A DNA stretch of 64,000 bases from assembly GCA_963813025.1 (NCBI GenBank), contig CAWEXO010000005.1:224001-288000 (forward strand), in the 5' to 3' direction. Under the pieces are notes generated by a model. That model was not told the DNA's origin. It saw only the letters and a program-made list of their open reading frames with translations, and searched no databases. This stretch comes from an uncultured Verrucomicrobiae bacterium. GTDB taxonomy: Bacteria > Verrucomicrobiota > Verrucomicrobiia > Chthoniobacterales > JAFAMB01. Made by a program: the position numbers and the translations under genes. This document shows positions 36,716 through 57,293 of the stretch, one piece after another. Each line of letters begins with the position of its first letter. Position 1 is the stretch's first letter.

Positions 36716-38102
36716 TCACACAATCTGGACCTCTGACACGGGCAGTCTGGAAAGCATGTCGCTGTGCTTTGGAGGGGGAACGGCCGCGCGCGCCACAAAA
36801 GTTTTATCCTGAAAATAGAGCGGTTGCCGGCCATAAATTGCCGGAAAACCGGCGCCGTATATGACCATATCCCCGGGTGCAACGATGAGTTCGTGTGTGT
36901 CTTTCTTCGGCCCGGGCATTCGGACACATTCGTCCGGCGTGAGGAGAGAGCGCTGCACCTCCTGCATCGTTGTAGAGACTTGCGTGCCGAGGCCTCGTCC
37001 CGATCGGGTCACTTGTTCTTTAATGATCGTGGTTTGGCCAGTGAGTTTCGAAAGGTGCTCGGCAGTTTCGACGCGATTGGCGGAAATGCTGTTTGCACGT
37101 GGCAATTCGAAGTAATGGTCTCATCGGGTCCATAGCCGGTTTCTCGGCTTTTCAGCTGATTAAGGTCCTGGCTGATCAGGTAACATTTGATTCCGTAGCC
37201 CGCGACAAAACGCCAGGCTTTCCTGCAGGATCTCCAGTTTCCCCAACGCAGGAAATTCGTCGACCATGGCCAGGAGTTTATGCTTGTACGAGGGTTTGGG
37301 TCGACCATTCTCAAACTGCATTCTGTCGGCCAACACTCGGACGATCATATTGACGACTATCCGCACCAGCGGCCGCAATCTGGCTTTGTCGTTGGGCTGG
37401 GTGATGATGTACAAACTCACCGGGTCAACGTAGTGCATGAGGTCGCGGATCCGGAAATCGCTCCGGCTCGTGTTTCTGGCGACCGTGGGATCGCGATAGA
37501 GGTCAAGATAAGTCTTGGCCGTTGAAAGGACTGATCCCGCTTCGTTCGGCGGCCGATCGATCATGTCTCTGGCCGAAGCCGAAACCCTTGCCACTGCGCG
37601 TCGGCGCGAAGCAAAGAACATGTTCCGGACCTCCGTGCCGAAGATATCGTGTTTTACCACTTTTATCGACCCACGCTCCGACATACACACCCTCGTTATC
37701 CAAGAGGCCGGCGGCCTTGATGTCTGCGAGGTCAGCCCACCTGGCGGAGCCGTGCAGGAACGGATTAACTCGGTAGTTCGCCCGGGCAACATCAAGTAAC
37801 AAAAGAAAGAAACAGCCGAGGGTCGTCAGTGAACCGATGCCGAAAGCCTGAGCGAACAGAGCATGATTACTCGGCTGTTCCCAGAGATGCGACCAGACGA
37901 AGTAATTCCAGGGCGGATAAAGATGGAACAGATTGAAACCGAGAGAAGGATGATAGTGGTAAGTGTTAGCCAGGAACTGCGTCGCCACGGCCGATCCAAG
38001 GATAATGGCGACGAGAAAGCGTAGCGCCCTTTTCCAATCTGGTTGAAGGCCCGGACGCCGGCGTTGGGGTTGGGGCCCAACCAGAGTGTTTCGTTTACTC
38101 AT
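36716..38102 (-). pseudogene. traG: Type IV coupling protein TraG/VirD4, decayed copy
   Basis: Homologous to 55440-57293; about 460 bp deleted after APTRSGKG, plus frameshifts. Confidence 0.9.
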
Positions 38103-39923
38103 CGCTCCAATCCTTGAGCGTGGGTTTGGATGACAACCGCAGGCGTTATCATCAGGGGAGTCTCGCGCGGCTGGCGAGCCAACGTGGCCGCTGTTGCTGC
38201 GTGATGGGCAACGCCAGGATCTCGGGGCCGCTGCGGACCAGGAGGAGATTTTGCCCATTGACCAGGCGAAACCCGACAAAGATCAATCGCCCGGCATCCG
38301 TTGGCTGCCAGAGACGATGAAGTGGTATATCACTGATAGGGTCACGTTTTGCGTTGCGCTCGGAGATATAATCGAGTGCGGCCTGGTTGAGCGGCTCTGG
38401 CGTCGCAGCTTGGGCGTCTCGTCGCGCTTGCTCGAGCGCGGGGTCCTCGAAGGACACTCCGAGATGATGCGTGCCGGCGACTCGCGCTATCCGGAGCTGA
38501 AAACCCTCGGACCCATGAGCATTAAGGCTATTACCGTATCCCTCCATCGCCCGATGAAGCAGCGCTACGATGACATCGTCACCGGCCGCCGTCGCGATGT
38601 GCAGACTTTCCCCATTATCCCTGATCTCATAGTCCCCAACTCTTTCGATCACAGTCCCCTGTTTGGTAACCTCGGCTTCGGAATCAGGCACGGGCGGTGG
38701 TTGCGGTGCGAGTCCGTGCGCGGATAGAGTCGTGGTTTGATCAGTGGTGCGGCGCCGGGCAGCGCGCAAGGCCTTGAGAGCATCTTGCCTTCCGCTGCTG
38801 GCTTGTTCCTGGAGCCAATCGATCCAAGTCAACCTGCGCGTCTCCGCCGCTAACAAGCGCCGCCCGTCGCGCGCCCGACGATTGATCGCTCGAAGCTCCT
38901 GCCGCAGTTCGGTTTTGATCGCGGCATAGCCGATACGGCGTGCCACCCCTTTCAACGTCATCTTCGCAAAGGCGCGTTTTGCTTGGGCGGCTGCTTTTGC
39001 CGCTGCTCCCTCCTGGGCTCGCGAGAGCGCGATTGTTTGGAATTTCGCTTCGCGCAGGGCGGCGCGCAGATCGCGTGTGCCTGATACTCTTCCCAGAGCC
39101 CAGCTGAGTCGATCTGCCAAAACGCCGGCCTTTTTTCGTAACCAGCTACTGCTTGGGTCGTGATGCCTTCTGCGCTGATGAAAGCCCCCAGCCTGGCCTC
39201 AAGTGCGGTCTTGCCGAGCTAACGATGGATCGCGCTGCCTTTGACGTGAACCTGGCCGCGCCGGTCACTAAACACAAATCCATTCGCACGTAAATCGAGT
39301 CGGACACCATGAGCCTCCGCTACACCGTGAAACTCCTCCCAACTGGTGGCGTCAATGAATCCTTGTGCAAAGCGCTGGAGCCAACTCTGAAACGATTCCT
39401 GACCTGACCTGGCGGTAATATCGTTGCCTCTTGATTGAGAGCGCTCGTGGCGATCCTGCGCCAAGCCGAGCTCGCATTCCAGGACAGCAGCCAACTTCGA
39501 TCGGGTTTTATAATCCGCGATCCGATCGTGGAGAGTAAATTTCTGCGGATGGATCTTATTGATCGCCACGTGGACGTGCACGTTATCGGTGTCGTGGTGC
39601 ACAACACTCACTCGCTGATGCTCGGCATAGCCTAGCTCGCTGCAGAAACGTTCTTCAATGATCCGCAATGTTTGAGCATCGGGATTTTCGCCGGCGCGCA
39701 ACGAAATCAAGAGATGGTATGTTCGATCAGATTTCGCGCGGGTGTTGAGTTGCTGGGTTGCGCCAATCTCGCGCACGGCCCAGCTGAGTTCGGTCGACAC
39801 ACAATTAGTAAGAGTAATCTCCCCCACCCTGGTTTTCTTGTTCTGGGAATCGACCAGGTAACGAATCAGTTTTCCGAACCGGCTCTTTTCAGGCGTCTTC
39901 AATGTGACCTTTTTAGAAATCAT
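38099..39923 (-). pseudogene. traI: MOBP relaxase TraI (IncP-like), frameshifted
   Basis: LIRYL catalytic Tyr, DRTYHLLISL, HUH motif VVHHDTDNVHVHVAINKIHP. Confidence 0.85.
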
Positions 39924-40117: not shown

Positions 40118-40479
40118 ACACGGTAACTCTGCTCACTGTTTCCAGTGATAGACTACGGACCTCAGAACTCGAACCCAAAACAAGTGCCGCTGCAGGAGGC
40201 TCGCCGTTGCTGCGCTCCGTCATGCCCCCTCTTGCGGGTATATCTTGTTCGAGCTTCGCTCGTTGCAGCCCGAAGGAGGAAAGTGGGGGCTGCAACAAGC
40301 TCCGCTGTGGCGGATTCCCGTTTCACGAAGATTTGCTTCTCACCGATCACCTGTCACCCGACTCCGCCAGGCCTGCATCACGGTAAACCTTCTCGCTAGT
40401 CACGTTTGGCTACCGGAACTTTCTTGTTAGCTCTACTCTCTTCCTGCGCTTGGTAATACCAGCTGCTGCGGGCCACCCC

Positions 40480-40640
40480 GCATTGCTGCACGAGGCTCAT
40501 TTTGTCGGCTGGCTGCCGCCGCTGCTGGAGCGTAAAGCCCCGTAATTTTTTCTTTTAAGCCACTCCAGTTCCATTTGAGCCGTCCAATCTGCTCGAACAA
40601 TTCGCTCTCCTGACGTCTGAGTTCCTGGTCGGCCACCCGA
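40480..40640 (-). pseudogene. IS3-family transposase remnant
   Basis: ESELFEQIGRLK(MELEWL)K-type orfA tail. Confidence 0.5.
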
Positions 40641-41575
40641 ATCTCCCCGTCGAAAAATCCGGGGACGCGCCAGAAGACTTTAAAGTTTCTCGGTTCACCC
40701 TTAGCGCCCAAATTGTTTTCCGACGACCTCATGGGTGGACGGTTGACGACGACCTTTTCCGGTCGGCAGAAAACGCGCAAATCCGTTTCGGTCACGATTG
40801 ATTTACAGAACGGAAAAGTGATTCCGGCGATGGGAAAGCTCAAGAGGCCCCGAAGATTGAAGGGCACAAATGAAAACCGTCCTGACCCTCATATTGTTCG
40901 GTGCTTTTGTCTTAACCGGTGTTGCTCAGACACCTGCTGGCGCGGAAACGATCATTAGCGAGGTCGCCAAGAAAACCCCGTGCACCAGCTCAACCGCTCA
41001 GTTTGCCAGGCCGACTTCACCTACTCGATGGCGTTAAACGTCATCAAGATTCGGGATACCGGCAAAGGTGCCAAATCCCCTAGATAAAGTCTTGACGAAA
41101 AAGGGGTGTCGACTCCCCTCGCCTCCAGCTCACTAATCACAAGTGGCTAGATACCAGCTACTTACATATAGGGGATTGGGTCACTCTTCGAAGTGGGCTG
41201 GTAACAGGTCTCCTTAGCTGGTAACGTGGCCACAAACCTCGGGAAGAATGGATATCTTCCAGCTGGCTTTCAAGCCAATCAGGGCAATCGATCGCTGTTC
41301 CCAGCAAGCGAGTAGGTGGAATCAGCATCTCGTTACGCAGAAGTATCTCTACACCGGGACTGGGCAGGTTCAAACAGGTCCAATTACGCTCAATTCAACC
41401 GGGAGTGGATCGGGCGGACAACTTTCGGGCTAATTGTAATTAGCTCTAAGTAACCAAGTTTACTCCTTTCCGGTAGTCCTTGCTTTTTCGTGTTACATCC
41501 GGGGTGGTTTTGGCATTTGTTTCGATGTTAGTTTTCCGTCCCCTTCTGTTTAAATTGCAGAACGAAAGCCAACCC

Positions 41576-41980
41576 ATGCCAGAACATACGGCTGAATTGC
41601 CGGCCGGCCCCGTCGAGGGCGGCGGCGGACGCGTGCATCCTCCGCGTCCGGGAGTCGAGGAATTACCTGCAGGCCCAGTGTATGCCTTTGACCGCGAAGC
41701 GGTCACCGAATTGTTCCGTTTGCGCGACCGCGTACACGCGCTCGAATCCGAGCTGCTGATCATAAAATTTAATCCGCGATCGCCAAGACCCAATCCTCAC
41801 GAACTCCCGCCGATTCGAGATTTCATTCTCCATCGTCCAGGTCCTGGTGCCCCGAATGAACTTCCTCCAGCCGAATTCGGCGAGCTGACGCAGTATATCA
41901 GCGCGATCCTCGAACGGCTCAGTTCTATCGAGGCGAGCATCGCTGCTCTCGGGGCTTCGACGGGTGCCCAAGGACAATAG
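41576..41980 (+). CDS. Pro-rich hypothetical protein with four ELP repeats (134 aa)
   Basis: ELPAGPV twice, then HELPP and NELPP, plus two short amphipathic helical segments; 9 bp upstream of the next gene. Confidence 0.7.
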   Translation: MPEHTAELPAGPVEGGGGRVHPPRPGVEELPAGPVYAFDREAVTELFRLRDRVHALESELLIIKFNPRSPRPNPHELPPIRDFILHRPGPGAPNELPPAEFGELTQYISAILERLSSIEASIAALGASTGAQGQ

Positions 41981-41989
41981 AGCGGTCAT

Positions 41990-44830
41990 TTGGTCGTGAG
42001 TCGTAGCCGGGAAGAGCTGGCCGCCTGTTTGAGCCGGCATGGCATTCTTTATGCTTCAGCCGGGCAGCCAATTCGGCATCAGGATCGAACACCTGCGCCG
42101 TGGGCATTTTATAGCTGGAACGCTACCCTGACAGCGCATGGATTGCGTCTTGCTGCGGTCTGCATACTGGAGCGGCTGCGCGGATTCAGGGCCTCCCAGT
42201 TAGCAAGCATCGGTTATACCGGCATACCCCTGCTCTCCGCGTGCGTTCTGCTCGGAGAAGGGCGCTACACTGGCCTTTGCATCCGCGAGAGCCGGAAAAA
42301 ATATGTTTCCTGCCGCCAGGTGGAAGGGCCGTTCGACAAATCTGCCCCGGTTGTGATTATCGATGACTCGGTCAGCTCCGGCAATTCCATCGCAGAAGCC
42401 ATCAGGGCTATCGAGAATGAAGGAGGCGAAGTCGAAGGCGCGATCGCCCTAGTGCAGTTTCCGTATCGAGGTGGCCTCGATTGGGCAAATTCGGCTGGCT
42501 ACCGGGCCGAAGCGATCCTGGATGTCTGGTCCGATCTTGGTATGGCCCGCACGCTGGCTAAGCCTGAACGGCGGCCACCCCCGCTTACTGGCAAGGTCAG
42601 AGCTCCCGAAGGCTTGCACCCGGCAGTGCTGGCCCGGTTTTCAGCGGCCACGTGGCTTGCCACGGGTCTGGCGCCCTCGCCGCCCCTGCAAATGGATCGC
42701 AACTATGCATCCCCGGGAGGGGTCTTTGTCAGCTTTCGTGAGCGCGCTAACGATAACCGAATTGCTCGTAACGGATATTGGCATTTCAATCCGGACGATG
42801 CGGCGCCGTGTGCGGACGTGATTGCGGCAACAATTGAGACACTACGGGATGCGCATGGGCGCATTACACCCCAAACCCTTCCAGAACTCAAAATTGCGGT
42901 CACTTTTTTTTCCGCGCTCGAACTGATTAAGCCCAAAGATCTTGATTTTGAGCGTTACGGTATTGTGGTGCGAAGCCGGGCATTTCCAAGTAAGATGGGC
43001 GGCGCGCTGCCCAACACGCAGGCTTTCATCAGCGAGGTCGAACAATATCGCCAGGCGCGCGTGACCAATGCAGGCATTGAGCCTGGCGAGCCCCACGATC
43101 TATTCCGCCACGAGGTCTTCAAATACGTCGAACCGGGCCAAACGTGGCTGCAGTACGGTTCGCCGGAGAGCGCTGCAGGCTGGTGGCGGACCGCAGAGTG
43201 TGGTCGCCGGATCACAGCCCGTGCTCGGCAGTTATTCGACGAACTGCAGGGTAAAGAGGAACAATCGAAGGAAAAAGAAAGCGCAAGTGCTCCGGCCTCA
43301 GTCGATGCTTTTCCATTGGCCAGTGCGCCGGAGGATATTGGCCGTATCGAAGCGGTCGCGGTCCGCGTCTATCACCCGGACTACGGCCTGATCGGATACG
43401 GATTAGCACTGGGAACCGAGTTCGACGACGCGCTGCGTGCTGCGGTGCTACAGGCGGCCGCTGACCCGCGGGGCGGTTCAGGGTTGACGCGCGGAACGAT
43501 AGTCGTTTCCGTCCTGCACGATCCGGAACTGCTCGGCAGGGCGGCCGTCCAAACTGTCGCATTCAAGCTTCGGCGCGGGCTTGATGCGCTTGAAATCCAC
43601 TATTCCGGCAAAACCACGATTCTCCTGCCATCGGTGCTGGTTTACAACAACCTCACGCGAGCGGAATTCGTCCGGACCTGCGTGCGCTTGGCGGGTGCCG
43701 AGGCTGCAGCCGAAAGTCGCCAGGTCGAATGGCGAACCTTGCAATGCGCCGAATGGGTTGATGATGGCCGGTATACCCACCCTTTGCGGTTCGGCTCTGC
43801 GGTTCGTGATGCCGATACCCTGGATTCCGCCTCTTTGATCCGTTTGCTGGGCACTTACATCGTCGGATCGCTCGGGGCTGACCGCCTGCCGCGTTACATG
43901 CTACAACCGGCCAGCGGCGAGGTGCAGATCTACGGGACTGCCGGACGCGCCATTCACGGATTGATGGCGCTGGACCTCGCAGGGTTATTTCTTGGGGAAC
44001 GGAGTTGGCGGGAGGGGGCTGGCGCCGGCTTCGGTTATTGTCTGGACCATGTGCGGGAGGGTACCATCGTTCTTCCCGGCGTCGTCGGCGGGACGCTTGC
44101 GGACGCGGTTCTCCTTGGCGCGGTCGCTCGCTATAAGGCGCTCAGTCAGCGGGCTGCTTCACGCGCTCTGGCTGCCCGTCTGCGCGGCCTGCTGCGGCCG
44201 GAAGGACGAATCGGGTATACGCCTAAGCGGCTTGAACTGCCGCAGGATCACGAGTTTCTGCCCGGAGCTCTGCTGGCCGGTTTGGCAGATTTCGGGGCTA
44301 TCCAGGATGCCGGCGCGCAGGTTGCATGGTACGCACATCATTTTTCAGCTTTGCCGGGGTGGGGACAGGCCGGCTGGCTGCCGCAGGGTATGGCGGCGTT
44401 GTACCGGGTTACTGCAGATCGGGCGGCGGTTGAACTTGCCTTCGCGGCCACTGATTGGGCCATTGATCGGCAACTAGGGAGTAGCGGTGCGTTTCTTGAA
44501 GATCTCAGCCCGGATGAGCCGAGTTTCAATACGGGTTTTATCGCCGAGGGCGTCGCTGCATCCTGGGAGATTGCGATCGCTGTGGGCGACGTCGAACGAG
44601 CCGCACGCTATGCTGCGGCATGGTCGGCAGCGATGCGGTTTATGACAAACCTGATCGTTTTTCCGGAAGACGTTTTCGCGCTGCGGGCCGGACCAAAGGC
44701 CATTGGCGGTGTGCGCTGTACACTGACGCGTTCAGATATTCGGATCGATCAAGTCAGTCACTGCCTTCATGCGCTGGTAACTGGCGCGCGCCTGCAGCCT
44801 TCTGGGTCGCGTCTTAACATGTACGTGTAA
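41990..44830 (+). CDS. Multidomain protein: OPRT-like phosphoribosyltransferase + tandem AMMECR1-like domains + alpha/alpha toroid
   Basis: PRPP motif VVIIDDSVSSGNS; GGVFVSF...YGIVV...GGALPN; AAADPR...RRGLDAL...ILLPSV; C-terminal GGVR...IRIDQVSH. Confidence 0.75.
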   Translation: MVVSRSREELAACLSRHGILYASAGQPIRHQDRTPAPWAFYSWNATLTAHGLRLAAVCILERLRGFRASQLASIGYTGIPLLSACVLLGEGRYTGLCIRESRKKYVSCRQVEGPFDKSAPVVIIDDSVSSGNSIAEAIRAIENEGGEVEGAIALVQFPYRGGLDWANSAGYRAEAILDVWSDLGMARTLAKPERRPPPLTGKVRAPEGLHPAVLARFSAATWLATGLAPSPPLQMDRNYASPGGVFVSFRERANDNRIARNGYWHFNPDDAAPCADVIAATIETLRDAHGRITPQTLPELKIAVTFFSALELIKPKDLDFERYGIVVRSRAFPSKMGGALPNTQAFISEVEQYRQARVTNAGIEPGEPHDLFRHEVFKYVEPGQTWLQYGSPESAAGWWRTAECGRRITARARQLFDELQGKEEQSKEKESASAPASVDAFPLASAPEDIGRIEAVAVRVYHPDYGLIGYGLALGTEFDDALRAAVLQAAADPRGGSGLTRGTIVVSVLHDPELLGRAAVQTVAFKLRRGLDALEIHYSGKTTILLPSVLVYNNLTRAEFVRTCVRLAGAEAAAESRQVEWRTLQCAEWVDDGRYTHPLRFGSAVRDADTLDSASLIRLLGTYIVGSLGADRLPRYMLQPASGEVQIYGTAGRAIHGLMALDLAGLFLGERSWREGAGAGFGYCLDHVREGTIVLPGVVGGTLADAVLLGAVARYKALSQRAASRALAARLRGLLRPEGRIGYTPKRLELPQDHEFLPGALLAGLADFGAIQDAGAQVAWYAHHFSALPGWGQAGWLPQGMAALYRVTADRAAVELAFAATDWAIDRQLGSSGAFLEDLSPDEPSFNTGFIAEGVAASWEIAIAVGDVERAARYAAAWSAAMRFMTNLIVFPEDVFALRAGPKAIGGVRCTLTRSDIRIDQVSHCLHALVTGARLQPSGSRLNMYV

Positions 44831-45220
44831 CAATTTGCTCAAGAAGCCGGCCCGGCGATCTGGAACGTAGTGCGTACCGAAAATCGTCCCACGGCCTGAA
44901 TCAGGAAAACAAGATAACGCCAAATTAGGAAAAAGGAAAATCGCAATGCCTGTTATCACCCTGTGTCGGCAGTCGAGTCAAAACCAGCCAGTGATGGTCG
45001 AATCAAAACCGGCCACTCTTTTAGTAAATAAAGGCATCGGGTGGGCTTGGCACGTAACGTTTTGTGGGATTGTAATTTGCATTTGATTTGTGTGAGCTCT
45101 GGAATGAGCGAACACTGATTGATCAAAAATGTAAAAAACAGCGACCGGCTCTGCGCGGAACATTCTCCAGATCAAGGCCAAAACGGAATAAATGGCGGGA
45201 AGCCCGTAGGGAGGCACCGT

Positions 45221-45716
45221 TTATGCCGGATTTGGACTGGAACCGGAGAATGCGGAGCGCTGTGGGGTGGTAGCGCGTTTTGGCTTAGATTGCAGGCGAT
45301 AGCTGCGGCCGTTGATGGGGATGATTTCGGCATCATGAAGCAAGCGATCAAGGATGGCACTGGCTGCAGGAACATCGTTTAGCAGTTTGCCCCATTCTTC
45401 GATGGGCCGGTTGGAAGTCATCATGGTGGAACGGTTTTCGTAACGACGCATAATGATCTCCAAGAGGATTTCACCGCTTTTTTGCGGCAGGACCTTCAGC
45501 CCCATATCGTCAATGATCAGCAGATCGGGCTTGAGGTATTTGCTTAAGAGTCGGCCTTCTCCGGCCTGGGTTTCCTGGCAGAGTAATTCACGTACCAGAT
45601 CAAAGATTGAGCGGTAAAGGACCAAGAAGCCGGCTTTGAGTACTTCGCGACCAATGGCCTGTACCAAGTGACTTTTTTCGACGCCCGGCGGACCGACCAG
45701 CAGTACGTCGCGCCGA
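45221..45716 (-). pseudogene. istB: IS21 helper ATPase IstB fragment
   Basis: GPPGVEKSHL (mutated Walker A), LLIIDDMG, MTSNRP..EW, AILDRLLH, GRSYRL. Confidence 0.85.
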
Positions 45717-46002
45717 TTCGGTGTGCTGAATACGTAGTTACAAAGGGAGCTGCTCCCGATTACGACTATCCTAAGTTTCTTGCTGAACTGAAGAAGGCCG
45801 GTGTCGAAGTGCCAGATCTTCCCAGGAAGACACACCATCGGCTGAAGGATTCAGCTGAGGATCTTGATAACTGTCAGTCGGACTCAAGGACGCTCAAATG
45901 ACCACCCCTTTTGCACAACTATACCGAAGTCAGGGCCTATCTGGAAAAGGAGCATCCCGATTGGCTCCGGGCTCTAACACCGCGGCACATAAACGCGCCA
46001 GC

Positions 46003-46232: not shown

Positions 46233-46610
46233 TTAGGCGACAAGCGTGATCTGCCACGTAATGGGCCCGTCGACCAGCGATCCCGCTGAAGGCGGGGAAT
46301 TGAGTTGCCCATTACCCGAGATGTCCCCCTGCGGGGCCGACGTAAAGCCCCATAACACCATCAAGACATTGTCCGAATCGGCATCTTGCGCACCTGCAAA
46401 ACAAAGAAGACTTCCCGTATCGAAAAGGCAATCTCCGCCGCCGACTGCGAACGGTTGCGCGTTGAAGGAGGAGCCGCCCCGAATAACCAGACTTTGCTCG
46501 ATCCAACCGTCAATCTGGCCGGCAGCAATGATCGGAACGTGGCGACCTGACCCGCTACCGATAACCGTCGACGCGTTCTTGCTGTCCACAATTTGAATAT
46601 TAACACCCAT
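46233..46610 (-). CDS. Hypothetical Gly/Ser-rich beta protein (125 aa)
   Basis: Clean ATG-started ORF with protein-like composition; no family recognised. Confidence 0.55.
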   Translation of the reverse strand: MGVNIQIVDSKNASTVIGSGSGRHVPIIAAGQIDGWIEQSLVIRGGSSFNAQPFAVGGGDCLFDTGSLLCFAGAQDADSDNVLMVLWGFTSAPQGDISGNGQLNSPPSAGSLVDGPITWQITLVA

Positions 46611-47571: not shown

Positions 47572-50082
47572 ATGAACCGGCCCAAAAAACGCGCAGCGAA
47601 GAAGGACAAGAAGGTCGCCCCCAAAGTGGCGCCAGCCAGCCTGGCCCCGTTTCGAGAGGCCAGTCAGGCGCCCCCAAAATCCTCGCCCAAAGTTGTTCCG
47701 TTTGGGGGCCCCCAGCAAGAATGCCGTCCGCGTTCACGAACCTCGCCGACCTTCGTGGCCCGAATCTCGCGCAAGCTCGGCAAGCTCCGTCAGCCCTGTC
47801 CCTGTGATTCGTGCCCGCCTTCTCCCGAGCTGACCTGCTCGTACATCGGCGAAGATCAATTCGTCGAAGACGCCTATCTCGCCAACGCGTATCGAGGCAA
47901 TCTGTTCTTGACGCCCGGTGATGCCAGCGGTGTTATTGGCGGGCTGCTGCATTCGCTCGATCCTCCACAGCATTACTCCCACATGGGAATCATAGTGGCG
48001 AATCATGACTTGGTCCGTCATTGCACCATGTCGCAGGATCGGCTGACCACCAGCGAGTATTACAGCGGCAGCATGCTGGGAGTTCCGGCGCCCCTTGACG
48101 GACTCGATGTAGATCACGCGCAATACGGTTGGCCTGGGACAATTACCCAATCGGTGTATCAGGCGTTTTTTGCCGCTCGCTACGGCACCGGGATCACACC
48201 GCCCGGCCATTCCGGACCATATAAGGGTTCCTTTCTTCCCGATCCCGAAAGTACTCACAACAATTCCTACCTGATGAACCAACTCGGGTTTGATCCCGTT
48301 TCCGATGACGGAGACACTTGGTATCCACCGCTCATCGTGAAGCTTTGCCCGTTCCTCCAGACTCAGCAGCACACGGAGGCTCTCGATCGCATCGTCCAGG
48401 CCGCGCTATCCGCCTACGCCCATTACCGGTTCTTCGCTTACACCGATGGAGTAATCGGCGGTGAATCGGGGGTAACGGGGGCGAGCTTCACCGTGCCGGT
48501 GGCCCAACCTGATTTCGACCCGTCCACAGGCAGGTGGGCCGATTGGGCCACAAGCCTTAAAACGGTGACGACGCCGACGATCCCGGCCTGCTGCTCCTCG
48601 TTTGCATGGCAAATGGTCCAGAATTCTGTGCCGCCCGGAGGTCCCAAGATCATCCTCGATTGGGCCAATTCACATTTGCAGGCGCTGGGCGAATATCAGG
48701 GTAAATGTATACGCTCCGTTCCGCCGCTGTGGCAAGCCGACTCGCGCGACAAGGCAACGCGCGACGGCCTGTATCTCTATAGCGAGGGCGAGCGCATCCT
48801 GACGGCTAACTCCTTGCACGACAATCTCGCGCAGCTTGTTTACGATAAGCTGAAGGCACAGTTGCATAATGCGGGTGGCGTTGAAAGCGCCGTTGCCAGC
48901 GTCCTCGACGACGTTGGGCGAGACGCGTTTATTATCGCCGCTGGTGCCGGCGTCGCGGCGCTTTCGAGCCTGCTGGGGCCCCTCGTGGCAACGGCAGGGT
49001 ATGTTGTCGATGCGGTCTTCTTGAGTAAACTGATCGAGCTGCTCAAGGACATGCCCGAAGACATTGCCAACCAGATGTGTAACCTGTTCGCCTTCGATTG
49101 TGCCCGCGGCTTCCCGGCCGACGCGCACTGCGTCGATGCCAAGGGCAACCAGATCACGGATGTCGATTCAGATAACTGGAGTTCGGCGCCCGGTCCCGGT
49201 AGGGCTGTCAGCCCCGACAACATCCACATGTTTTGGGACGCACCGGGAATAGCGAACTCGGATATCATCCAAGGCCTTTACGGCTACAACGTTCCCGCCA
49301 AGCTCTGCGTCGGAGTCTTCAACCGGCCGATATGCGCGCTCGTGCCGAGTACGGGCGTTACCACCCTCATCGGGTCAGTGTTCTACAGCAACAAACCAGT
49401 GGCAGGCGCTTACGTTTCAGCAGCTTGCCAATATACCCTTACCTCCGGAGAGCGAATGCCACGTTACAGTCTGAAGGTCCACTCGGGCGGCCAATACAAG
49501 GTGATCGCGCGCTACGAGGACCTGAACACGGGGATGGTGCTGTACGGAGAGGCAGTCACGGGAGACCGCAACTCTCCGCCGCTCCAGCCCAACACCGTGT
49601 TCCACCTCAATATTCAAGTCATCGAACCGCCCCCCAACATGCGCAACGTTGTCATCCAAGGGGTGATTCGTTGCGATGATGTCCAGTTGACCACACAAGA
49701 CAACGGCCAACAGTCATTCCAGACGACGCTTTTCGTGCAGTACGGCGCTGCCGTTTTCGACATCGCCAGCGGAACTTGGAAAATAGATATCTACGCCGGG
49801 CGCCCGACCGATACCGCCAGCGTAGGCTATTCTGTGGGCGATTCGAATGCCTCGGTGCAAATGAGCGCGTACGTCTACTCGGATTATTCCGTGGATGTGA
49901 CGCTGGAAGGACTCCTAAATCCCGGCGACGATAATATGTCGACTGGAAAGCAGACCTTTCACGTCTCCAAAGATCAGACCATCAATCTGACTGAGGCCGA
50001 CCTTGATACGGGCGGTGCATTCCCCGACCGGGCGTACTTCCGGGGATTTACGATTGCGAACAACGCTGTCTCCGCGATCTAG
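47572..50082 (+). CDS. Large hypothetical protein with permuted papain-like (YiiX/YaeF-type) His/Cys motifs and a beta-rich C-terminus
   Basis: 836-aa intact ORF; HYSHMGII precedes ACCSSFAW; G.V....PVAGAYV beta-sandwich start. Confidence 0.6.
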   Translation: MNRPKKRAAKKDKKVAPKVAPASLAPFREASQAPPKSSPKVVPFGGPQQECRPRSRTSPTFVARISRKLGKLRQPCPCDSCPPSPELTCSYIGEDQFVEDAYLANAYRGNLFLTPGDASGVIGGLLHSLDPPQHYSHMGIIVANHDLVRHCTMSQDRLTTSEYYSGSMLGVPAPLDGLDVDHAQYGWPGTITQSVYQAFFAARYGTGITPPGHSGPYKGSFLPDPESTHNNSYLMNQLGFDPVSDDGDTWYPPLIVKLCPFLQTQQHTEALDRIVQAALSAYAHYRFFAYTDGVIGGESGVTGASFTVPVAQPDFDPSTGRWADWATSLKTVTTPTIPACCSSFAWQMVQNSVPPGGPKIILDWANSHLQALGEYQGKCIRSVPPLWQADSRDKATRDGLYLYSEGERILTANSLHDNLAQLVYDKLKAQLHNAGGVESAVASVLDDVGRDAFIIAAGAGVAALSSLLGPLVATAGYVVDAVFLSKLIELLKDMPEDIANQMCNLFAFDCARGFPADAHCVDAKGNQITDVDSDNWSSAPGPGRAVSPDNIHMFWDAPGIANSDIIQGLYGYNVPAKLCVGVFNRPICALVPSTGVTTLIGSVFYSNKPVAGAYVSAACQYTLTSGERMPRYSLKVHSGGQYKVIARYEDLNTGMVLYGEAVTGDRNSPPLQPNTVFHLNIQVIEPPPNMRNVVIQGVIRCDDVQLTTQDNGQQSFQTTLFVQYGAAVFDIASGTWKIDIYAGRPTDTASVGYSVGDSNASVQMSAYVYSDYSVDVTLEGLLNPGDDNMSTGKQTFHVSKDQTINLTEADLDTGGAFPDRAYFRGFTIANNAVSAI

Positions 50083-55439: not shown

Positions 55440-57293
55440 TCACACAATCTGGACCTCTGGCAACGGCAATCTGGAAAGCATGTCGCTGTCTTTTGGAGGC
55501 TGCACAGCTGCTCGAGCCACAAAGGTTTCGTCCTGAAAATAGAGAGGCTGACGGCCGTAAATCGCCGGAAAACCGGCGCAGTAGATGACCATATCCCCGG
55601 GTTCGACGATGAGTTCGTGCGCATCTTTCTTTGGTCCCGGCATTCGGGAACATTCGTCAGGCGTGAGAAGAGGTCGCTGCACCTCTTGCACTGTTGTAGA
55701 GATTTGCGTGTCGAGGCCTCGTCCGGATCGGGTGACCTGTTCTTTAATGATGGTCGTTTGGCCGGTGAGTTTCGAAAGGTGCTCGGCAGTTTCGACCCGG
55801 TTGGGCGGGAACGCTGTTTGAACGTGACAATTCGAAGTGATGGTCTCGTCTGGTCCATAACCGGTTTCCCGGCTTTTCAACTGATTAAGGTCCTGGCTAA
55901 TCAGGTAACACTTGATTCCGTAGCCCGCGACGAATGCCAGGCTTTCCTGGAGTATCTCCAGTTTCCCCAATGCAGGGAATTCGTCGATCATGGCCAGAAG
56001 CTTATGCTTGTACGACGGTTTGGGACGGCCATTTTCAAACTGCATTTTGTCCGCTAAGAGCCGGACAATCATATTGACGACAATGCGCACCAGGGGCCGC
56101 AACCTGGCTTTGTCATTGGGTTGGGTGACGATGTACAAACTCACCGGGTCAACGTAGTGCATGAGGTCGCGGATCCGGAAATCGCTGCGGCTGGTGTTTC
56201 TGGCAACAGTGGGATCGCGATAGAGGTCCAGATAGGTCTTGGCCGTTGAAAGGACCGATCCGGCTTCATTGGGCGGACGGTCAAGCATATCTCTGGCCGA
56301 AGCAGCAACCACCGGATGATTGTGACCATTGATGTGACCATAACTGAGCATTTCAGTCCAGAGTTCCTGGACCGGCCGGCTCGAGTCGGCCAGCATCTGG
56401 TCCAGAGCCGCAAAGGTCGCGGGCGATCCTTCCAGTTTCGCCTTGTAGCAGAGGTGCAGGATGCAGCCGACTAGTAGCGAATAGGCGGTTTTCTGAAAGT
56501 GATCGCCCGGCCGTAATCCTTTGCCATCCGGATCAACCATCAGGAGCGCAAGGTTCTGAACGTCTCCAACCTCATGTTCTGTCCCCAGCCGCAGCTCATC
56601 CATCGGGTTAAAGCAACAAGAACCGGCCGCCGTGGCGGGCTCGAAGCGCAACACCTTGTTATGCGCGTACTGCTGGCGCCATCCTGCGGTGAGTTCGTAA
56701 AGCTCGCCTTTGAGGTCGGTAACGAACACGCTGTGAGGCCAAGAGAGCAGCGTCGGAACGACGAGACCGACCCCTTTCCCGCTGCGCGTCGGGGCGTAAC
56801 AGAGAACATGTTCAGGGCCTGCATGGCGCAGGTATCGAATGTTACCCGCTTGATCGATCCAGGCTCCGACATACACACCGTCGTTACCCAAGAGGCCGGC
56901 GGCCTTGATGTCTGCGAGGTCAGCCCACCTGGCGGAGCCGTGCAGGAAGGGGTTAACTCTGTAGTTTGCCCGGGCGACATCGAGTAGTAAAAGAAAGAAG
57001 CATCCAAGGGTCACGAGTGAACCGATGCCGAAGGCCTGGGCGAAAAGGGTACGATTACCGGGACTTTCCCAGAGATGCGACCAGACAAAGTAATTCCAAG
57101 GCGGGTAAAGATGGAACAGATTGAAACCAAGCGAAGGCTGATAGCGATAAGTATTAGCCAAGAACTGCGTGGCCACAGCCGACCCGAGGATAATGGCGAC
57201 AAGAAAGCCTCGCGCCCTTTTCCAATCTGGCTGAATGCCAGCACGCCGGCGATGGAGTTGCGGCCCAACCAGAGTGTTCCGTTTGTTATTCAA
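55440..57293 (-). CDS. traG: Type IV secretion coupling protein TraG/VirD4
   Basis: N-terminal TM helices, LHGSARWA, Walker A APTRSGKG, DLKGEL, Walker B IDEFPALG, ISQDLNQL. Confidence 0.92.
   Translation of the reverse strand: MNNKRNTLVGPQLHRRRAGIQPDWKRARGFLVAIILGSAVATQFLANTYRYQPSLGFNLFHLYPPWNYFVWSHLWESPGNRTLFAQAFGIGSLVTLGCFFLLLLDVARANYRVNPFLHGSARWADLADIKAAGLLGNDGVYVGAWIDQAGNIRYLRHAGPEHVLCYAPTRSGKGVGLVVPTLLSWPHSVFVTDLKGELYELTAGWRQQYAHNKVLRFEPATAAGSCCFNPMDELRLGTEHEVGDVQNLALLMVDPDGKGLRPGDHFQKTAYSLLVGCILHLCYKAKLEGSPATFAALDQMLADSSRPVQELWTEMLSYGHINGHNHPVVAASARDMLDRPPNEAGSVLSTAKTYLDLYRDPTVARNTSRSDFRIRDLMHYVDPVSLYIVTQPNDKARLRPLVRIVVNMIVRLLADKMQFENGRPKPSYKHKLLAMIDEFPALGKLEILQESLAFVAGYGIKCYLISQDLNQLKSRETGYGPDETITSNCHVQTAFPPNRVETAEHLSKLTGQTTIIKEQVTRSGRGLDTQISTTVQEVQRPLLTPDECSRMPGPKKDAHELIVEPGDMVIYCAGFPAIYGRQPLYFQDETFVARAAVQPPKDSDMLSRLPLPEVQIV

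Follow-up and report, generated by a model that had tools for sequence, protein, structure and literature searches.

AMMECR1 domains are found in all three domains of life, and the human gene is mutated in an X-linked syndrome. No biochemical function is known to have been established for these domains; Burroughs & Aravind 2014 (PMC4075521) offer a prediction, linking them, through a conserved cysteine, to an uncharacterised RNA base modification. [quoted passage not shown] A third comes from the cassettes of ribosomally synthesised, post-translationally modified peptides (RiPPs), as well as of other repeat-carrying modification substrates, such as multi-core precursors and the collagen-like proteins of prolyl hydroxylases, in which an adjoining gene contains many copies of a short motif. 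Here we describe a pair of genes that can be compared with all three, found in a 64,000-nt stretch of DNA from an uncultured Verrucomicrobiae bacterium. This whole stretch is called the window, and all coordinates refer to it unless a contig is named.

The pair consists of two same-strand open reading frames (ORFs), 41576-41980 (+) and 41990-44830 (+), separated by a 9-bp spacer (41981..41989), confirming the intact two-gene unit proposed in a preliminary description of this DNA. The first gene encodes a 134-aa protein, acidic, Gly/Pro-rich and Cys-free (hereafter the partner). The second, with a TTG start, encodes a 946-aa protein (hereafter the enzyme) composed, in order, of a type I phosphoribosyltransferase (PRTase) domain resembling orotate PRTase (OPRT), two AMMECR1-like domains and a six-hairpin alpha/alpha toroid. 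Relatives of the enzyme are labelled 'orotate phosphoribosyltransferase/AMMECR1 domain-containing protein' or 'hypothetical', and we found no description of the architecture or of the partner in the literature searched (bioRxiv supplements not covered), in line with the earlier view that the fusion was uncharacterised. The domains are known. What is new is that they are combined in this way, the family to which the partner belongs and whatever chemistry is plausible for the pair; we present the pair as a candidate new system, documented by genomic association and by folds.

Association of the enzyme gene with a Glu-x-Pro protein

A scan of GTDB genomes yielded 38 loci with the enzyme gene, and we read the frames beside it at 35 assessable places, comprising the window and 34 loci (L002, L021, L033 and L037 were left out, being either fragments of the C-terminus or partial, weak matches). 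A small acidic protein with Glu-x-Pro motifs adjoins the enzyme gene in 33 of these places; homologs thus keep the partner gene, as the preliminary description requires. In 18 places this protein is an ortholog of the window partner, of a type that we call PxELP, encoded upstream on the same strand. Five further places contain an upstream tandem-repeat protein of the form (PEIPET)n, (PETPE)n, (PERPEF)n or (EVAPEVKPEII)n, and in another one (L031) a methyltransferase gene separates the enzyme gene from an upstream gene for a (PETPEL)n protein, which is on the opposite strand. In seven places, all from Thermoanaerobaculia, the partner gene is downstream and encodes an (ERPERPDII)n-type protein with a conserved KVQNPFTPP N-terminus, and two places show atypical acidic Pro-rich ORFs downstream (L032, and L035 with VE[AM]RPK repeats). 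No partner was found in the remaining two, one with full flanks (L036) and one with only a fragment of the enzyme gene (L030). Between clades the partner sequence is wholly different, with repeated Glu-x(1-2)-Pro as its sole persistent feature; what is conserved is the synteny of the partner and not its sequence. An all-against-all comparison of the ORFs flanking the loci revealed no other broadly conserved neighbour.

We also applied an automatic count, scoring frames with at least three Glu-x-Pro in any 100 aa. Such a frame occurs within 1.5 kb of the enzyme gene in 28 of the 35 places, as compared with 30 of the 3553 frames that these loci contain at a distance of 2.5 kb or more. Unrelated long ORFs account for a few of the 28, and several true partners were lost to the overlap filter and recovered by reading the frames.

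The window partner contains four ELP motifs, at E7-L8-P9 (41594..41602, +), E29-L30-P31 (41660..41668, +), E76-L77-P78 (41801..41809, +) and, within PNELP, E95-L96-P97 (41858..41866, +). In an alignment of 15 sequences, E7, P9, E29, E95 and L96 are invariant, and P31 is conserved in at least 90%. The other invariant residues (R24, E45, R52, E57 and E119) are situated in two helices. The protein has one conserved central helix (ELFRLRDRVHALE) and a C-terminal one. The PxELP-type family comprises 156 homologs at E<=1e-3, typically of 145-160 aa and all annotated as 'hypothetical'. The 120 of these homologs that were listed are Cys-free, follow the consensus P-[A/N/Q]-E-L-P and contain a mean of 4.8 ExP motifs per protein, versus 1.4 expected from composition. 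Searches of Pfam, NCBIfam and PADLOC returned no family for the partner or its variants, and no more than weak, sub-threshold matches of coiled-coil, FH1 and LigA-like type. ATG 41576 is the likely start of the partner gene, because a relative with 93-94% identity (L001) begins there and the longer N-terminus that would result from an upstream TTG at 41480 is shared by no homolog.

Partner genes of other clades showed several peculiarities. The N-terminal domains of two (PEIPEV)n partners from Acidobacteriaceae (L014, 6631-7350; L016, 6730-7536) weakly resemble LigA, an aromatic-ring-opening dioxygenase subunit, with E values of 0.0023 and 0.058, under cut-off. Locus L027 (4106-6592) has two tandem paralogous partner genes before the enzyme gene, encoding proteins of 390 and 322 aa that contain PETPE repeats and resemble each other in their N- and C-terminal regions; its enzyme ORF, of 1134 aa, has an N-terminal extension and is directly followed on its 3' side by a 2-oxoglutarate (2OG)-Fe(II) oxygenase gene. 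In L022 (7929-11301), from a metagenome-assembled genome (MAG) of Thermoanaerobaculaceae, the 1041-aa enzyme ORF reads in frame into (ERPERP)n and further repeats lie in another frame, which would indicate either a natural fusion of enzyme and partner or a frameshift error within the repeats. The enzyme or the partner gene is split over two frames in several long-read MAGs (L011, L014, L020, L003 and L006), probably as a result of sequencing frameshifts and not of decay.

Domains of the enzyme

The AlphaFold2 (AF2) model of the enzyme, built on an alignment of 66 full-length relatives, is confident as well as compact (predicted local distance difference test, pLDDT, 93.7; predicted template modelling score, pTM, 0.93). 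Its only disordered part, residues 429-442, falls in an acidic linker of low confidence (43274..43345, +; residues about 429-452). Together with Foldseek comparisons, the model returned the domains that had been read from the letters, namely a PRTase, two AMMECR1 domains and a toroid. The conservation counts out of 66 given below come from a family alignment of 66 sequences.

The PRTase domain (41990..42559, +; residues about 1-190) contains the PRPP loop VVIIDDSVSSG (residues 121-131, nt 42350) and the flexible loop, RESRKKYVSCRQVEG, with R99 and K103, both as previously noted. Matches to the enzyme in a PDB sequence search were OPRTs only (E 6e-8, residues 52-180), and Foldseek matched the N-terminal domain to OPRTs (Mycobacterium tuberculosis 5hki; TM 0.90, E 1.9e-10). 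The enzyme thus shares with PyrE the type I PRTase fold, the PRPP loop and the Arg and Lys of the flexible loop, and with human OPRT also a Y-T-G-I-P motif. Unlike PyrE, it scores below the family cut-off (46.7 bits to NCBIfam pyrE, TIGR00336, over residues 47-157, for a cut-off of 106.8), as it also does for the pyrE_Therm-like TIGR01367 (17.8 bits; cut-off 150.25) and for Pfam Pribosyltran (19.3 bits). It further differs from PyrE in having some 750 additional fused residues, in being non-universal and in its conserved protein partner.

Residues for PRPP binding and of the catalytic loop are conserved (R99 in 66/66 sequences, K103 in 58/66, D125 and D126 in 64/66, and G131 in 65/66), and the domain looks catalytically competent. 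The l-d-r of OPRT is opposite v-q-f in an alignment with human OPRT (2wns), so that the 'DR' motif, located after the PRPP-loop strand, reads Q-F; the Arg of this motif, which we take to bind orotate, is replaced by F157, a Phe in 60/66 family members. A separate pyrE_Therm-like gene exists in the same genome (G000:C4:108252-108635, -; 134 bits to TIGR01367, cut-off 150), with one in-frame TGA that may be an assembly error or the mark of a pseudogene; no housekeeping pyrE over the TIGR00336 cut-off was found in this genome, which is 80% complete. Because the PRPP and catalytic loops are kept, the DR Arg has become Phe and the genome has a separate pyrE_Therm-like gene, the domain looks like an active PRPP user with an acceptor other than orotate. 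The earlier assertion that the protein does not belong to pyrimidine biosynthesis is borne out by the same Phe, by the scores under both pyrE cut-offs and by the separate gene.

Two AMMECR1-like domains follow, the first at 42602..43189 (+; residues about 205-400) and the second at 43346..43804 (+; residues about 453-605), containing the motifs GGVFVSF, YGIVV and GALPN, and AAADPR, RRGLDAL and LLPSV, respectively, as first described. Pfam AMMECR1 (PF01871) matches them in two stretches (E 2.5e-10, 40.6 bits for a cut-off of 25; relatives reach 73-78 bits), and Foldseek aligned the middle region of the model with the AMMECR1 structures 1zq7 and 1wsc. PDB searches with single sequences of both regions gave no match other than one spurious pentatricopeptide repeat. 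The enzyme therefore shares with the AMMECR1 family its Pfam score, its fold and the motifs G-x-F-V-(T/S) and L-P-(Q/N/S)-(V/T), and differs from it in the tandem duplication and in the lack of the LRGCIG cysteine. Alignment to five canonical AMMECR1 domains of the same phylum indicated that LRGCIG reads RIARNG in repeat 1 and GLIGYG in repeat 2, where Tyr470 occupies the Cys position. The preliminary description had both repeats lacking this cysteine, which holds for the window protein; as a family trait it holds for repeat 1 only, in which Cys is absent throughout, whereas in repeat 2 the column contains Cys in 35/66 sequences, Tyr in 15/66 and Ser in 5/66. On this alignment, the loss in repeat 2 is clade-specific and not family-wide. 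In contrast to the AmmeMemoRadiSam system, there is here no adjoining Memo gene or activating radical SAM gene, no Memo-like neighbour is conserved across the 34 loci, and the score to AmmeMemoSam_A (TIGR04335), over residues 479-585, is 33.4 bits for a cut-off of 99.

The C-terminal (alpha/alpha)6 six-hairpin toroid (43805..44827, +; residues 606-946) contains invariant residues that include GGVR (906-909) and the cluster R918/D920/S923/H924, which correspond to the GGVR...IRIDQVSH ending already noticed. Modelled alone, its 341 residues reached a pLDDT of 92.2. The best match was the glycoside hydrolase (GH) family 76 structure 6shm (Z 24.1, root-mean-square deviation 3.0, 288/341 residues aligned; Foldseek E about 1e-4), upholding the earlier comparison with six-hairpin domains, and the C-terminus of the full-length model also matched a GH76 enzyme in Foldseek. 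The domain has in common with six-hairpin enzymes (GH76 mannanases, GH88/GH105, type II terpene cyclases, AprG and sugar epimerases) the fold of residues 606-946; it differs from them in sequence (8-16% identity), and no Pfam family matched these residues.

Possible functions of the gene pair

Our preferred explanation, held tentatively and with less than even confidence, is that the pair is an enzyme-substrate cassette, in which a PRPP-dependent enzyme modifies the Glu-x-Pro repeats of the neighbouring protein. The 946-aa protein would then be an enzyme that tailors its protein substrate in several steps, and that substrate would be the acidic Pro-rich protein encoded beside it, recognised through repeated Glu-x(1-2)-Pro, in the form of PxELP here and of tandem PEIPET, PERPEF or ERPERPDII in other clades. 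The survival between clades of this repeated motif alone suggests a multi-site substrate recognised via the motif, since a regulator or a subunit with a folded interface would not predict it. Also in favour are the conserved full architecture, the competent look of the PRTase and its departure from pyrE, the lack of any other conserved neighbour across the loci, the accessory tailoring enzymes beside some cassettes and, as a precedent, the PRPP-dependent transfer to O-nucleophiles by gPRT-PRP ribofuranosyltransferases (PMC11127046). Transfer of ribose-5-phosphate is the most economical mechanism, because the enzyme contains a plausible PRPP-using domain with a changed orotate site. The OPRT-like domain may thus transfer ribose-5-phosphate from PRPP at or beside the Glu-x-Pro motifs, the Glu side-chain carboxylate being the most economical putative acceptor; the resulting ester would be the same as that of Glu-ADP-ribose after phosphodiesterase trimming. 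Docking of the extended repeat, or a second step on the attached pentose, could fall to the two AMMECR1 domains and to the sugar-enzyme-like toroid. We infer from gene order and domain content the partner as substrate, PRPP as donor, Glu as acceptor and the roles of the AMMECR1 and toroid domains. On the points where the preliminary description could be contradicted computationally (loss of the partner, modelling of the domains, identity with pyrE and prior description), nothing contradicted it.

The most specific version of this proposal, in which the type I PRTase phosphoribosylates Glu in the repeated Glu-x-Pro, with the AMMECR1 domains serving for repeat-peptide handling or as a second catalytic module, and the whole being the first PRPP-dependent protein-modification system, is unlikely. 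If it held, the AMMECR1 domain would gain its first assayable biochemical function. Should PRPP prove to be the donor, protein phosphoribosylation straight from PRPP would be a new chemistry alongside NAD-dependent ADP-ribosylation. The family joins two AMMECR1 domains, a PRPP-using module and a candidate substrate with a simple repeated motif; AMMECR1 function becomes testable because the PRPP module is in the same polypeptide and the candidate substrate is conserved by synteny.

The proposed cassette departs from the described systems in several respects. In the part of the gPRT-PRP source consulted (PMC11127046), the acceptor is a sugar and the second module a haloacid dehalogenase (HAD) phosphatase, whereas the acceptor proposed here is a protein and Pfam and NCBIfam scans showed no HAD domain in the enzyme. 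With RiPP and similar cassettes it shares, besides the adjoining repeat gene, optional accessory genes. These comprise 2OG-Fe(II) oxygenases of PF13640/PF13661 type beside L014, L016 and L027; B12-binding radical S-adenosylmethionine (SAM) ORFs beside three distant loci (Pfam-confirmed in L035 and L036, and assigned by BLAST clustering in L038); a SAM methyltransferase beside L031; and an APH-type kinase fused C-terminally to one metagenomic enzyme (P0126). Repeat 'cores' together with clade-specific N-terminal segments (KVQNPFTPP in Thermoanaerobaculia, the weakly LigA-like one in L014) also exist. Unlike in RiPP cassettes, the partners measure 130-390 aa and have no leader common to all clades, no RiPP recognition element (RRE) domain, protease or exporter was found, and the comparison of flanking ORFs across loci showed no conserved protease or exporter. 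To our knowledge, the domains of the enzyme are not those of any known RiPP class.

Several observations weigh against a modifying enzyme acting on its neighbour. Adjacency does not tell which protein acts on which, and we know of no type I PRTase with a protein acceptor. At L036, a full-length locus, no partner was found in the 8 kb flanking it on each side; in L038 and L035 the motif is E-x-x-P and not E-x-P. The partners are far above the size of typical RiPP precursors, with no obvious export or protease genes nearby. Statistically tied matches of the toroid, with Z of 21-24, extend over terpene cyclases, GH88/GH105 hydrolases, the transaldolase AprG and sugar epimerases; therefore, on the model, the fold is certain and its chemistry is not indicated. 

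Other observations hint at a coupling of enzyme and partner. The residue at the Cys site of repeat 2 varies with the partner, being Tyr/Ser in 15/15 enzymes with PxELP partners and Cys in 13/13 with tandem-type or atypical acidic partners, but this correlation is a single phylogenetic event with no statistical weight, because the 15 PxELP-type enzymes form one clade (SH-aLRT 100, quick tree). Three contigs of a metatranscriptome library, from a relative with 93-96% identity, are spread over the partner gene together with the 5' part of the enzyme gene, and one of the contigs from the RNA library spans the gene junction (41815-42110); RNA libraries can contain DNA, and this contig is no proof that the two genes share one transcript. 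When residues 4-946 of the enzyme were co-folded with residues 2-58 of the partner, each with its own alignment, the interface scores (ipSAE) were 0.00 and 0.00; being without controls, they count neither for nor against binding.

A small-molecule pathway is an unlikely alternative, yet one to be taken seriously, in which the enzyme uses PRPP to make or modify a metabolite, nucleobase-like or of sugar-phosphate type, with the small protein serving as scaffold or carrier in the style of LysW or pearlin, as chaperone or as regulator, and not as the final substrate. In favour, no characterised type I PRTase is known to act on anything but small nucleophiles, small-molecule and glycan enzymes account for most six-hairpin toroids, and the preliminary description also allowed for a metabolite. 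Conversely, no further biosynthetic gene is conserved beside the pair, and what the partner has kept is a motif in repeats, and neither a terminus nor one attachment site, which fits a multi-site substrate better than a carrier.

It is quite improbable that the pair is a toxin-antitoxin-like or defence module of mobile DNA, with the PRTase fusion as an effector that targets nucleotides or pools of PRPP, and the acidic protein serving as inhibitor or nucleic-acid mimic. The genomic context would suit this, as the cassette is situated amid conjugation and insertion sequence (IS) debris and is duplicated in its genome, its occurrence across taxa is patchy, the tree of the enzyme disagrees with taxonomy, and PADLOC weakly matches the enzyme to the retron PRTase_III-A (E 0.055). 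However, neither protein has a significant match in PADLOC 2.0, the partner having none at all, and the 12 of 113 flanking ORFs, from 30 loci, that match PADLOC at E<=1e-5 are mostly generic (2OG, methyltransferase, kinase and intron reverse transcriptase), with no recurring system. Scans of IMG/VR viral contigs and PLSDB plasmids found no copy of the cassette, and an antitoxin role leaves the 30-70 tandem Glu-x-Pro units of some partners unexplained.

Very unlikely, in our view, is an RNA or nucleotide modification enzyme with an incidental partner, as could be derived from the AMMECR1 prediction, which in the sections of the source consulted (PMC4075521) ties the domain to RNA bases through the conserved Cys. 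Here neither repeat has that Cys, repeat 1 lacks it across the family, no RNA-binding domain or RNA gene was noted, and the association with the partner would be left unexplained. Finally, an ordinary OPRT of pyrimidine biosynthesis fused by chance to other domains is almost certainly not what the enzyme is, since OPRTs are indeed the best sequence and fold matches of its N-terminal domain but it falls under both pyrE cut-offs, reads Q-F for DR, coexists with a separate pyrE_Therm-like gene (134 bits) on contig C4 and belongs to a sporadic family whose signature appeared in 0/60 other sampled genomes of the phylum.

Distribution and genomic surroundings

A word-index search identified 190 relatives of the enzyme, nearly all of about 930-965 aa and with 97-100% coverage, and an exhaustive search of representatives found 1043 with E<=1e-3; of these clusters, 207 reach E<=1e-30. 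The GTDB loci are distributed over Pseudomonadota, Acidobacteriota, Actinomycetota, Chloroflexota and Thermodesulfobacteriota, plus a Chthoniobacterales MAG with 93-94% identity to the window. Among soil bacteria, the family is common in Acidobacteriota and Proteobacteria, and ESM Atlas matches were limited to its own unnamed clusters, mostly from Acidobacteriota. Cultured carriers include Paraburkholderia humisilvae, Dyella subtropica, Collimonas arenae and Hamadaea tsunoensis, making genetics possible. The 60 other genomes sampled from the phylum of the window contained canonical AMMECR1 genes only, without even the weak double-AMMECR1 signature. This sampling result and a quick tree, which places the window enzyme among sequences from Proteobacteria, both suggest horizontal spread.

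The cassette is duplicated within the genome, and the extent of the shared block is a further hint that the two genes form a unit. The block 41448..44905 (+), containing just the two genes, is 98% identical to a second copy on the minus strand of contig C12 (G000:C12:136514-139973), where both genes are also intact (L047, 9591-12932, minus strand) and encode a 944-aa enzyme and a 133-aa partner. An IS630-type transposase gene and LigD fragments are situated near the C12 copy. A soil metagenome contig is about 96% identical over 41450-44873 and then diverges. Most of the sequencing runs matched only small shares of the window, so that no habitat is indicated beyond that of the matching contigs.

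The neighbourhood of the gene pair in the window is decayed mobile DNA. It includes at least four pieces of a type IV coupling protein gene (36716-38279, -), a MobA/VirD2-TraI relaxase gene split in two (38152-39923, -), a truncated IS21 istB (45221-45838) and a LigD primase fragment, with IS630-type and Mutator-type transposase genes farther along. The earlier report of IS3 and IS21 debris among broken neighbours thus stands as to IS21, to which the coupling protein and relaxase remains can be added; IS3 remnants were not confirmed, the one candidate ORF (40433-40867) having no Pfam match. Two other ORFs near the cassette gave no match in the databases searched, one of 836 aa downstream of it (47572-50082, +; no match in Pfam, NCBIfam or PADLOC) and one of 125 aa (46233-46610, -; none in Pfam or PADLOC). 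A second coupling protein gene, intact and encoding 617 aa, is located 17 kb farther on (55440-57293, -), which suggests the presence of two conjugative elements, one of them decayed.

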